A stretch of 64,000 nt of DNA from Escherichia coli (lineage in GTDB: Bacteria; Pseudomonadota; Gammaproteobacteria; Enterobacterales; Enterobacteriaceae). The stretch is from assembly GCF_024223415.1 (NCBI RefSeq), contig NZ_CP100500.1. The stretch is one strand, 5' to 3'. The position numbers were made by a program. Below, piece by piece: positions 9,001-12,000 of the stretch (positions are counted from its first letter, which is position 1; each line of letters opens with the position of its first letter).

Positions 9001-12000
9001 ATCCATCGCCCCATAATATAACCCTTTGTTTTAAAATTACATAAAATCTATTTTTATTCAATGATTATAAAGTGCTAATAATCAATATTATGGTATTATA
9101 TTCTGATAATGATTTGATAAGCGAATTCTTTTACCAGACGGTATTTCTATTTCCACCCCATAATTTATATCTTTTTCATCAGGAAGTGGCCTCTTTAAAT
9201 AAGGCGTGCGTGACATTTTTTTGGGTTAAGCGTCTCGTATTGAAATACTTCGAATTGATATTCAGACATTTCTGCCCATGTTTGAATTTTATTGTATCGG
9301 GAGAGTGTCGTAAAGGCTTTAACTTGCTTATAACATTGTTTTTGGAATTCTTGCTGATATTTTAATATGTCGTTGTATGAAAGATTGGTTATCCTGGCCT
9401 CTAAAAATTTAATTATTGTCGAAGCAATTTCCGCTTTTGCTCGTAAAAAGTTGTCATTAATGGTTAATAATGTTGAAAATAAACCTTCGATTTGTTTGTC
9501 AAGATATTGTTCGTCTTTATATAATTTTGGGGTAGGGTGTTCTTTATGTGAAAAAATAGTGTCACCTAAATTTGCGTCAGTGAAATTTATATTAAGTAGA
9601 TCTTCGAAATAAAACCTTGACAAGGTTAGAACGAACCCGGACAGGTTCTGTCCTGTCATATTGAAATCAATAAAGTTGGTTCCGGCAAAGACTTTCATCC
9701 TGTTTTTATTTTCACTGTGCTCAATATATAACTTCGTCATTTTTTGATACAGGCTTTGAATATCTTTTATATTAGTCGGTAAGTCAGCTCGTTGTTCAGC
9801 AATAAAATTAGTATCTGAAAACATGGTTTGGACACTGAATATTACTGGTATTCCCTCTTCTACGCTAATTTTAGTTATGATTGCCTTGTCGGGTTTAGGA
9901 TTAGCGACAACAATGATTCGACATTCAGCACTTTTGTTCTTTTCGTATCTAATGTTATTAATTTGATTAAGTATTTCCTGTGCCTGCCGCGTAAGTGGTG
10001 TCGAACTTATCGATTCAATGTTAGTAATAAGACTTACAAGTTGAGCCACAACTTTTGAGTAGTCTGCATCTGTATATTTGGTGTTCGTGCGGCACGCATA
10101 AATTTGTGGGAGGTGTTGCCGCGCTAAATCATATTGTTCAGGGTTGTATCCTTCTCCAGAGAATGTGGAATTAATGGGTTGTTGTTCTTCCCGATTATCA
10201 CAAGGCCACATCGGTGTGTCTGGTGTTTTAACATTGTCGGTATCTGTTGTGCGGTTATAAATATCGCCGTGATATGTATTTATCATACCTGGGGTAAAGT
10301 CAATTGACATAACATTCCTTATTCATCATCTGTTTTATGCTAAGATTTTTAAATTGGATAATTAGAGCAGGAATGGATTTTCTTCTACGCACAATAAATA
10401 TCATGCGTCATATCTTCCTGATATAATTACCTTTGACTTCCCTTTTATCTCCACCCGGTAATATTTGTGTATAAAAAAGGGCATTGATAGTATCGTAAAG
10501 GAAAACGTTAACAACTATCAAAAAGCGCTCATTTTAAAAAGTTATGATGTTCTCCGATAGTGTGTGAAATGATATTTTTGTGATGTTTTAGATGTGTAAT
10601 AATGAACCAGGTTAAAGTGTATTTAAAAATGTGTTGTATTAGCGACTGAAATCTGCCTTTTAAAAAGGAGGAGGGTACTGAGACAAAGAGATATTGCTTC
10701 TCCGATAAAATGTAAGAGAAGCATGATTGCGTGGTTATTGTTTGTTGATGACTTGCTGACCGAGCCGTCATCATTCTCAATGCATTAGTTAAATTATTTG
10801 TGATTTTTAAGGATTATCCTGTCTATGATTTTCTACTTAGAAGGATATGGCACTAACTATGCATCTTATAGTTTACTGTTGGCATCTATTTAAAATAGCA
10901 TTTGAGTCAAATAGCCCATCAAGATAGCCATACCTAATATAACGGTCAGGAATGCAGCTATCATCGGCATTCTGAACATTGATTTAAGCAATATCACTTC
11001 CGTCAAACTTGCTCCGGCACTGCCGATGATTAATGCCATTAATGCTCCCAGACCCATTCCTTTGGTCATCAAAACAGATGCCAGAGGGATAACTGCCTCT
11101 GCCCGGATATATAGCGGAATACCAACAACGGCGCTCAATGGGATGGCGAAGGGATTATCTGCCCCTGCATGAGCGGCAATCCACGCTGAGGGAATAAAGC
11201 CATAAATAAAAGAGCCTATTAATACCCCTAACAAAAGATATGGCAGTACATCTTTAAACTGTTGCAACGCATCTTTGGTGGCTAGTTTTATGGGATTAAT
11301 ACTTACCACAGTTTTGGTATTGCAACAGTTAACTACGGGTTTCTCAATGGCTTTAGCCGTTGGACTACAGCAACTCACTTCTATTGGCGTATATGTCGTC
11401 CCCGGCAAAGTTTTTGCCGACGCTTTGGCTGGAGCACAACAATTTGCTGATGAGCTTTTACTGGCAATGATATGACGTTCAAACCCCAGAGAATCCAGGA
11501 TAATACTGGCAAGAACGGAGACGCCGGTGGCGATAATCGCGTACAACAAGGTGACTTTCCAACCAAAGGTCACCCACATTAGTCCGACGATAATGGGATT
11601 AAGTAATGGTGAAACAAATAAAAAAGTGAGAGTCGGACCAAACCCGGCTTTCGCTGACAACAATCCACGTAGCATGGGTATTGTCGAGCAACTACAGAAC
11701 GGGGTAACGGCTCCCAACAGAGCAGCCAGGAGATAGCCTCTCCCTTTTCTCGCCCCCATCATCTGCTGGATTTTATGGTCTGGCACCTTTTGTCTTATCA
11801 GGCTGACACCGGCACTAATCACTATAAACAGCAAAGAAAGCTCGACGGCAAGAAACACAAACATCTCTGCGGCATCTTGCAGCATCGCAAGCCAATTACT
11901 CATACGTAACCTCGTTGAATAAATCTATATTTCCAGAATAATCGAAATGAAATTCAGATCAAGATATTTCTGGTATTATCGAAATATCAACCAGACAGAG

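Follow-up and report, generated by a model that had tools for sequence, protein, structure and literature searches.

A truncated allele of yhiS, an orphan Escherichia coli gene with one short pentapeptide-repeat module, and its probable origin by slippage in an A-run

The yhiS locus

The window, a 64,000-nucleotide stretch of an Escherichia coli contig (NZ_CP100500.1, RefSeq assembly GCF_024223415.1), contains a 371-codon open reading frame on the minus strand at 9195..10310 that, as reported in the first-pass annotation, is uninterrupted from ATG to TAA. It is flanked by slp and the ars genes, both in the window and in the annotated loci of other genomes. The predicted protein was 75–99% identical, across 98–100% of the query, to named YhiS proteins from E. 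coli and Shigella, and one UniRef cluster (P0070) carries the name YhiS. A Shine–Dalgarno-like AAGGA sequence (10316..10320, minus strand) is found 5 nt 5′ of the ATG. Alignment with 407-aa alleles indicated that, if an A-run close to the 3′ end were A8, the gene would extend over 9088..10310 (minus strand) and encode 407 aa. The ORF is yhiS, an uncharacterised orphan gene that adjoins slp and occurs in E. coli and Shigella only, and its function is also described as uncharacterised in published work (PMC8170033, PMC6928379).

The N-terminal region of YhiS (aa 1–55; 10146..10310, minus strand) is polar and rich in T, D, P and N, and no signal peptide or membrane segment was found in the protein (maximum Kyte–Doolittle 19-residue mean of 0.99). 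This region had no secondary structure in the low-confidence AF2 model of the full-length protein. No family in NCBIfam, PADLOC or PHROGs matched YhiS, and no Rfam RNA family was found between positions 7000 and 13000 of the window. Apart from a single full-length cluster and fragments of yhiS, a HMMER search of 1.84 billion representatives recovered three pentapeptide-repeat proteins, the only matches beyond Escherichia. Several clusters that looked like diverged orthologues (P0122, P0128, P0153 and others) proved to be error-ridden pieces of E. coli yhiS itself. A scan of one genome per species for an N-terminal peptide pattern detected no locus, that of E. coli included, and is therefore uninformative on taxonomic range.

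The surrounding DNA is AT-rich, as had been described, with a GC content of 0.31–0.37 across 9001–11000, where yhiS is located, 0.40–0.42 over slp and dctR, and approximately 0.5 or more in most flanking intervals. In the intergenic region 5′ of yhiS (10311..10889; GC 0.34–0.37), the first ~317 bp are common to the arsC/yhiS intergenic region of K-12, and the match to K-12 stops at window position 10628 (query position 1629). The K-12 arsC/yhiS region is on a list of H-NS-bound ‘promoter islands’ (PMC3661553), and H-NS and StpA bind both yhiS and its upstream region in that strain (PMC3661553; bioRxiv 10.64898/2026.02.10.705075), which supports the H-NS context proposed in the first-pass annotation, for K-12 only. 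The acid-island context proposed with it did not fit, as Z4907 has been named a border gene of the acid fitness island (PMC9729726), placing yhiS just outside the island as published, and yhiS is not induced by YdeO (PMC4222967). A scan of 8900–10950 gave 10 promoter-like sites against 9.5 expected, which is chance level, and no terminator. The K-12 literature suggests that yhiS lies in H-NS/StpA-bound AT-rich DNA and is probably poorly expressed.

The pentapeptide-repeat module

A pentapeptide-like tract of 10 pentads occupies aa 206–255 (9546..9695, minus strand) and includes the pentads noted earlier (a 15-residue stretch and, further on, ANLGD). The central residue is L, F or M in 10 consecutive pentads (aa 208–253), against at most 8 in any of 20,000 shuffled sequences, and the combined pentad score was 19 against 16 for the best of 5,000 shuffles. 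D or N is frequent at position i−1 and the spacing is strictly five residues, the pattern by which pentapeptide repeats are recognised. The profile check proposed in the first-pass annotation did give a match to Pfam PF00805, but at 12 bits (E=0.16) it was below the gathering score of 20.2, and the best E-value across 10 alleles was 0.097. A profile built from the alleles matched Rfr32 in the PDB (E=0.0041), and a phmmer search of the 1.84 billion representatives matched P0152, P0160 and P0163 in 5–7 registers (E 1e-5 to 5e-4); both kinds of match are weak, and scores of this sort are inflated by repeats. The three proteins are genuine pentapeptide-repeat proteins, matching PF00805 at E 1e-46 to 1e-80. 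The phmmer alignments delimited one module (aa 193–278; 9477..9734, minus strand), in which the pentads lie between two ‘LY...DK/NR...G’ linkers of 18 and 16 residues, and it aligned colinearly with the ~68-aa unit that recurs in large pentapeptide-repeat proteins. Matches to isochorismatase structures in the PDB (E 0.15, aa 144–213) were judged to be due to chance.

YhiS thus contains a single, short pentapeptide-repeat module with 10 pentads, and the tract is statistically real. The earlier description of the whole product as a pentapeptide-repeat protein was correct in this respect but overstated, as a single 50-residue module within 407 aa falls under the Pfam cut-off. The divergent module, missed by the family databases, is the sole functional clue for this orphan protein.

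Structure prediction gave a divided answer on the β-helix that had been anticipated. The full-length 407-aa AF2 model, made with 16 alleles in the alignment, had a mean pLDDT of 33 and no β-helix, whereas a domain model from an alignment seeded with genuine pentapeptide-repeat modules reached a pLDDT of 73–81, with strands every 20 residues in a β-helix-like arrangement of ~2.5 coils. The top Foldseek matches of the seeded domain model were pentapeptide-repeat proteins, at E 0.28 or worse, and the model superposed on solenoid pentapeptide structures at 1.6 Å over 49 residues. The seeded model suggests that the module folds into approximately 2.5 turns of a right-handed four-sided β-helix. So short a helix would most plausibly form a small protein-binding surface, not a DNA mimic.

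The first-pass annotation had linked the repeats to secreted effectors and DNA-mimic proteins, and nothing that we found connects the protein with either group. A role as a type III-secreted effector or as a DNA-mimic protector of topoisomerase would agree with the presence of the module, with a polar N-terminus that has no Sec signal, with an AT-rich, lineage-specific gene and with the NleL and SopA β-helix domains among the weak Foldseek matches (ranks 24 and 35; E 2.1–3.3). However, sequence and profile searches of the PDB found no similarity to solved effectors at E up to 10, no secretion locus adjoined yhiS in the loci examined, and the gene has matches in 5,418 of the 5,426 complete genomes of E. 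coli and has been lost repeatedly in pathogens and commensals alike. The genomes with a match include K-12 and BL21, which are not known to carry the LEE secretion system. DNA mimicry is implausible on size, as ~50 residues and ~2.5 coils are far short of the ~180–220-residue chains of Qnr, MfpA and AlbG (Foldseek target lengths), which are built of pentapeptide repeats almost throughout. Either role is highly improbable for YhiS.

The A-run and the C-terminal tail

The first-pass annotation considered yhiS intact, a view to be overturned if the ORF proved shorter than full-length homologues; alignment showed just such a truncation, with 371 aa in the window against 407 aa in the common alleles. 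The sequence near the 3′ end of the gene is CCC-A7-TG in the window (A-run at 9216..9222, minus strand) and CCC-A8-TG in K-12, BL21, O78 strain 3 and NCTC9112. In the protein alignment the frame is shifted at codon 366, where the alleles diverge (NPKK|M in full-length alleles, NPKK|C in the window), and CHARLI, six out-of-frame codons that are followed by a premature TAA (9195..9197, minus strand), takes the place of the 42 conserved C-terminal residues. The displaced tail is still encoded in another frame as a 42-aa ORF (9088..9216, minus strand) that has exactly the sequence with which the 407-aa alleles end. In the window allele the A8 tract has slipped to A7, shifting the frame and leading to the CHARLI end and the loss of the 42-residue tail.

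For NCTC9112 and O78 strain 3 the single extra A was the sole difference from the window across 1,901 nt, and A8 with identical flanks was found in 28 complete genomes. Among the complete-genome matches listed, none was an exact match to A7; the best was 99.0% identical, which corresponds to a one-base gap, and one match fell in the band at or above 99%. At least 24 public contigs, which come from independent samples, encode the exact YhiS protein of the window, and all three of the contigs checked have C3A7. Given this recurrence of the protein and of the C3A7 sequence in independent assemblies, we consider the A7 allele real and reject sequencing error.

The common length of YhiS is 407 aa, represented by clusters P0010 (8,964 members) and P0063 (2,855 members), and the 371-aa clusters are a minority. 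A third background, in P0015 and P0027, ends in CHTHLI. Across 16 alleles, 67% of positions in the tail were invariant, against 57% for the whole protein, and the dN/dS of the tail was 0.2–0.66 in full-length alleles. The gene is better described as encoding 407 aa, and the 371-aa form, of which the O157:H7 reference protein is one example, as a homopolymer-slip truncation. In RefSeq (PGAP), several true full-length alleles are labelled ‘frameshifted’, apparently by comparison with the 371-aa reference protein.

The same 371-aa end is found in O157:H7, where 296 complete genomes have CCCC-A6. By three 3′ SNPs this sequence belongs with a CCCC-A7 haplotype, and the window belongs with CCC-A8. 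Slippage of the A-run thus appears to be recurrent, and the O157 and window slips look independent. Derivation of O157 C4A6 and window C3A7 from one event followed by a synonymous A>C change was considered less likely given the three linked 3′ SNPs. As O157:H7 is fixed for the 371-aa form and its remaining ORF is unbroken, the truncated protein could still work.

The 371-aa protein might be a functional short isoform, with the A-tract serving as a contingency switch that sets which of the two lengths is made. The same truncation has arisen at least twice on different haplotypes, it is fixed in the 296 O157:H7 genomes, the window allele is on no fewer than 24 public contigs, and the upstream 365 codons show no further damage. 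Against this, the tail that is lost is one of the more conserved parts of the protein, with purifying selection acting on it in full-length alleles, and the many lineages in which yhiS is destroyed outright by IS, deletions or early frameshifts fit neutral loss better than a switch. Both O157:H7 and the window clone are young, the latter being otherwise the same as its A8 relatives, and the absence of more decay says little. An A8 run is also short for classical phase variation. On balance a functional short isoform is unlikely.

A useful amount of the 407-aa protein might also be recovered from the A7 allele, either by −1 ribosomal frameshifting on A_AAA_AAA or by transcriptional slippage. 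In the window frame, CC A_AAA_AAA TGT (codons CCA AAA AAA) is a canonical X_XXY_YYZ heptamer; a −1 shift continues as ATG TCA CGC... and restores the exact 407-aa sequence, as would one A inserted in transcription, and slippage is documented to rescue frameshifted genes at A-runs (PMC1088944). However, there is no stimulatory RNA structure downstream (fold z-score of −0.55 against shuffles) and no Shine–Dalgarno-like stimulator was seen upstream of the slip site. A run of A7 is short, given that selection against slippage-prone runs is evident at ~9 nt in many bacteria (PMC1088944). The two-frame arrangement is not conserved, most alleles being in frame with A8, and the C_AAA_AAA of O157 is a poorer heptamer. 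Rescue by recoding is therefore very improbable.

The reading we prefer, and consider likely, is that the window allele is a yhiS gene truncated by an A8 to A7 slip, with one pentapeptide module, in AT-rich DNA that is H-NS-bound in K-12. It most likely adds to the yhiS variants that have lost function in part or altogether, and is not an intact gene.

Distribution and selection, and comparison with known systems

Matches to yhiS were found in all but eight of the complete E. coli genomes (5,418/5,426). In 29 genomes, drawn evenly from the match ranking and hence not a phylogenetically independent sample, 10 had a full-length gene, one had the 371-aa form, eight had other frameshifts or stops, four were interrupted by IS5, IS1 or IS1203, and six had deletions, with the result that yhiS was disrupted in approximately two thirds of the genomes sampled. 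The 10 full-length alleles were all in frame through the slip site, and the eight with an A-run there all had A8. The gene is an ordinary one, dispensable and often broken, with repeated inactivation across E. coli.

The dS of yhiS was up to 0.31, against 0.03–0.06 for the adjoining slp, and reached 0.6–0.9 over aa 256–300. Whole-gene dN/dS was 0.37–0.47 (p=4e-6 against neutrality), and no indel was needed to align the full-length alleles over 407 columns, although they diverge by 25% at the amino-acid level. These comparisons show that intact alleles evolved under purifying selection, and because of this yhiS is, or was, a real protein-coding gene. That the ORF is a chance frame in AT-rich DNA would account for the lack of a Pfam, NCBIfam, PHROGs or PADLOC family match and of homologues beyond one species, for the very low AF2 confidence and for the frequent pseudogenisation of the locus. 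However, the dN/dS value significantly below 1 effectively refutes this reading, and the indel-free alignment of divergent alleles, the good Shine–Dalgarno sequence and the resemblance of the module to real proteins are also against it. At ~34% GC, where stops are expected at ~7% of codons, the chance probability of an ORF of 371–407 codons is ~1e-12. A chance ORF can hardly be credited.

A more speculative possibility, which we regard as improbable, is that yhiS is under conflicting selection and is not simply decaying. Deeply diverged recombining haplotypes, constraint and repeated independent knock-outs, recurrent A8-tract slips among them, would all be products of such selection, with the module binding a phage factor, a host factor or some other external partner, and the A7 allele might keep a low full-length output via −1 frameshifting on A_AAA_AAA. 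The unusual allelic depth and repeated loss of yhiS beside a perfectly conserved Slp make it a convenient case for following the turnover of H-NS-silenced lineage-specific genes. On its own the window allele has little weight, yhiS being a catalogued uncharacterised E. coli gene and the lesion of a common kind.

Among known systems, the PF00805 proteins (Rfr32, PDB 2f3l, and the P0152, P0160 and P0163 proteins) share with YhiS the A(D/N)LXX-like pentads with a central L, F or M at a period of 5, and the ‘LYSTxSYxDKxLxG’ linker. YhiS differs from them in having a single 10-pentad module in a protein that is otherwise unrelated, and in its atypical i−2 residues (F, Q, E and I). The effectors PipB2, SopA and NleL/EspX7 and the proteins Qnr, MfpA and AlbG belong to the general repeat fold class predicted for the YhiS module and were among the weak structural matches, but sequence and profile searches of the PDB detected no relationship to them, and YhiS has a far shorter predicted helix, no linkage to a secretion system and matches in nearly all complete E. 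coli genomes. The A-run frameshift pseudogenes described by Baranov et al. (2005, PMC1088944) resemble the window yhiS in having a one-base indel and two overlapping ORFs that together represent the ancestral protein. The window gene is unlike the slippage genes of that study in its run of only A7, where 9 A or more is typical, and in having neither a conserved two-ORF arrangement nor a stimulator.

The closest comparisons are with yhiS itself. In K-12 (b3504, UniProt P37635) the gene is at the same locus between slp and ars and shares ~94.7% DNA identity with the window, but is a pseudogene in MG1655, where IS5 divides it near codon 250 into yhiS_1 and yhiS_2, in agreement with the IS interruption noted in the first-pass annotation, and keeps A8, whereas the window copy has no IS, has A7 and encodes 371 instead of 407 aa. 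The O157:H7 locus differs from the window in carrying CCCC-A6 on a CCCC-A7 haplotype, where the window has CCC-A7 on CCC-A8, and is without the upstream arsP–arsR insert. Its protein (Z4907; WP_001303709.1, 371 aa) is nevertheless of the same length as that of the window, with three amino-acid differences in the first 365 codons and the same CHARLI end.

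Truncation of yhiS at an A-run

A megablast match to 9000-10900 was found in 5,418 of 5,426 complete E. coli genomes, chromosomal in every case, and these matches together with the position of the K-12 MG1655 homologue between slp and arsC identify the locus as yhiS. As the first-pass annotation stated, the K-12 gene is split by an IS, IS5 in MG1655. The ORF in the window (9195..10310, minus strand) has 371 codons beginning MSIDFTPG... and ending in CHARLI, with an AAGGA Shine-Dalgarno sequence on the same strand 5 nt upstream of the start. Stops make up about 7% of random codons at the composition of this region, and by our arithmetic the chance probability of a 371-codon ORF is about 1e-12.

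The first-pass annotation took the gene to be intact and had set out truncation relative to full-length homologues as evidence to the contrary; alignment shows exactly such a truncation. Homologues recovered from 5.8 billion proteins were solely from E. coli and Shigella (74-99% identity) and nearly always 407 aa long (e.g. clusters of 8,964 and 2,855 members), the 371-aa form being a minority. Long and short forms agree in alignment through ...ETLNPKK, after which the long form continues MS(H/Y)xPYLKRxLPxEKxINYGVEIExPxGKRIRLSNHYQNIIP and the short form ends after CHARLI or CHTHLI. At this point the window reads AAC CCA AAA AAA TGT (CCC-A7-TG, run at 9216..9222, minus strand), whereas K-12, BL21, O78 strain 3 and NCTC9112 have CCC-A8-TG, and the displaced tail lies in another frame as a 42-aa ORF (9088..9216, minus strand). 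This one base is the sole difference from NCTC9112 and O78 strain 3 over the 1,901 nt compared. The yhiS of the window is a C-terminally truncated allele, and probably an impaired one.

A homopolymer sequencing error was rejected as the source of A7. At least 24 contigs, obtained from independent samples, carry the exact 371-aa protein, with C3A7 in all three of those whose DNA was read, and A7 is therefore an inherited allele. When the A7 sequence was used to query complete genomes, there was no exact match among the matches listed, the best being 99.0% identical with a one-base gap and the only one in the band of at least 99%; A8 with identical 45-nt flanks was present in 28 complete genomes. 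In O157:H7, CCCC-A6 (296 complete genomes) leads to the identical protein end. Two independent -1 slips are the simplest account, because three SNPs downstream (gene nt 1132, 1173 and 1179) place O157 with the CCCC-A7 haplotype and the window with CCC-A8. The CHTHLI end represents a third background (protein clusters P0015 and P0027).

Read in the frame of the window, the run gives A_AAA_AAA, a canonical -1 slippery heptamer. If the ribosome shifted by -1 here, or if RNA polymerase added one A, the product would be exactly the 407-aa protein again. No stimulatory RNA structure was found around the slip site, and the two-frame arrangement is not conserved in the sampled genomes. Slippage is evident at runs of about nine in many bacteria (PMC1088944), and the A7 run in yhiS is shorter. 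Meaningful rescue of full-length YhiS by slippage appears unlikely.

In RefSeq, the 407-aa full-length alleles of O78 strain 3, NCTC9112 and ES5 are labelled by PGAP as 'frameshifted' pseudogenes (yhiS loci L002, 4196-5312; L014, 989-2105; L025, 296-1412). The label apparently stems from the closest reference protein being the 371-aa O157-type WP_001303709.1, and looks like an annotation artefact that swaps which form is ancestral. Every CCCC-A7 haplotype sampled (L008, L009, L019, L020 and L026) has an earlier one-base deletion at gene nt ~755-761, giving a product of 281/282 aa; this may reflect a single lesion passed down by descent or another slip-prone site.

Loss and constraint across E. 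coli

The gene is widely broken across E. coli. Thirty genomes, not phylogenetically independent, were taken at even steps along the megablast ranking and 29 were classified. Full-length yhiS (407 aa) was found in ten and the 371-aa form in one, while eight had another frameshift or stop (43, 61, 281/282 or 327 aa), four had IS5, IS1 or IS1203 in the gene and six had a large deletion. At least nine distinct lesions were present among the 29. In some lineages (L003 from strain AVS0362; megablast matches H26-H30) the 3' two thirds of yhiS is deleted, leaving a 91-aa remnant, and in L003, the sole such locus examined, arsR and arsB are also gone.

The tail appears to matter, since among 16 full-length alleles it is more invariant (67% of columns) than the protein overall (57%; 32% for aa 301-365) and its dN/dS is 0.2-0.66. 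Over whole full-length alleles, by Nei-Gojobori estimates, dN reached 0.13 and dS 0.31 (omega 0.34-0.52), with a significant synonymous excess in the most divergent pair (p=4e-6); for the adjoining slp in the same genomes, dN was 0 and dS 0.025-0.059. Constraint was strongest in the pentad tract (omega ~0.3) and aa 256-300 (omega 0.08-0.2). At its highest, dS was 0.6-0.9 in aa 256-300 versus 0.03-0.13 in the N-terminal third, and this unevenness indicates that the alleles are mosaics of old haplotypes. The divergence in aa 256-300 (window 9411-9545) was seen between L010 and L002/L012, and involves small counts (12-15 synonymous changes). It points to a haplotype segment that is old or was imported. 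We conclude that yhiS is a real but dispensable gene.

Genomic neighbourhood and regulation

The AT-richness noted for yhiS, slp and dctR was borne out, with GC of 0.31-0.37 over 9001-11000 and 0.40-0.42 at slp and dctR; most flanking windows are at ~0.5 or more. As to the acid-island context, yhiS of EDL933 (Z4907) is described as bordering the acid fitness island and not as belonging to it (PMC9729726), and in K-12 YdeO overexpression induces slp-dctR, not yhiS (PMC4222967). The K-12 arsC/yhiS intergenic region is listed as an H-NS-bound 'promoter island' (PMC3661553), and yhiS is among the K-12 sites where StpA keeps chromatin structure without H-NS (bioRxiv 10.64898/2026.02.10.705075). Rfam detected no known RNA family in the neighbourhood (7000-13000).

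Between yhiS and arsC, a 337-aa ArsP-type permease (PF03773) and a divergent 98-aa ArsR/SmtB regulator (10890-12306) form a variable insert beside the ars operon, missing from K-12, BL21, O157:H7 and strain 042 and found in many other E. coli genomes. Adjoining dctR are the chu haem-uptake genes (chuA, chuS; window 1-7528, chuS 6500-7528) where K-12 has yhiD-hdeB-hdeA, so the chu cluster breaks up the acid fitness island, an arrangement also seen in O157:H7. Beside yhiM, two DUF4049 paralogues of the yhiJ/yhiL type (28158-29831 and 30093-31715) lie in a second AT-rich block (28000-32000, GC 0.32-0.40). This is another unusually divergent AT-rich locus, as most E. coli genomes are just 90-95% identical to the window there.

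The pentapeptide module and likely function

The pentapeptide repeats proposed in the first-pass annotation are present, though PF00805 scored YhiS at 12 bits (cut-off 20.2; E=0.16), with the same behaviour in nine of ten alleles. The named pentads were found in the tract (aa 206-255; 9546..9695, minus strand), with a central L, F or M in ten pentads running (aa 208-253), whereas 20,000 shuffles yielded at most eight in a row. Database matches are weak but consistent. A single-sequence search of PDB gave Rfr32 at E=0.088, with five of seven weak matches being pentapeptide-repeat proteins that matched one common stretch of YhiS, and a 16-allele profile brought Rfr32 to E=0.0041. HMMER against 1.84 billion representatives matched, besides fragments of yhiS itself, only three large proteins, all strong PF00805 members (E 1e-46 to 1e-80) that align to aa 204-283 in 5-7 registers. 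The full-length structure model was unusable (pLDDT 33). A model of aa 195-290, biased because its alignment was seeded with PF00805 modules, gave pLDDT 73-81 at aa 205-254 with strands every 20 residues. Its top Foldseek matches were almost all pentapeptide-repeat structures, but at E 0.28 or worse, and its superposition on solenoid designs, covering 49 residues, had an rmsd of 1.6 A. From the pentad run, these matches and the domain model, the tract is real and is probably a beta-helix of ~2.5 coils.

YhiS has no signal peptide or membrane segment (maximum hydropathy 0.99), and defence, phage and NCBI family searches gave no match. The fold class had suggested a secreted effector, but sequence and profile searches of PDB found no effector similarity and yhiS is also in K-12 and BL21. 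Chlorhexidine MIC was unchanged by the Keio yhiS deletion or the ASKA clone (PMC8170033). On the best account, YhiS is probably soluble, lineage-specific and silenced, its one pentapeptide module providing a small binding surface, and is dispensable in most settings.

Overall, the initial observation is partly confirmed and its interpretation partly supported: yhiS in the window is a known gene with a known type of lesion and a divergent pentapeptide module not annotated before. DNA mimicry, also suggested by the fold class, does not fit, as mimics of the Qnr or MfpA type need a far longer helix than ~2.5 coils. The three large PF00805 proteins are built from a repeated unit of ~68 aa in which about nine pentads come after a 'QLYSTxSYxDKDLxG' linker, whereas YhiS contains exactly one unit of this type, with a linker on either side.
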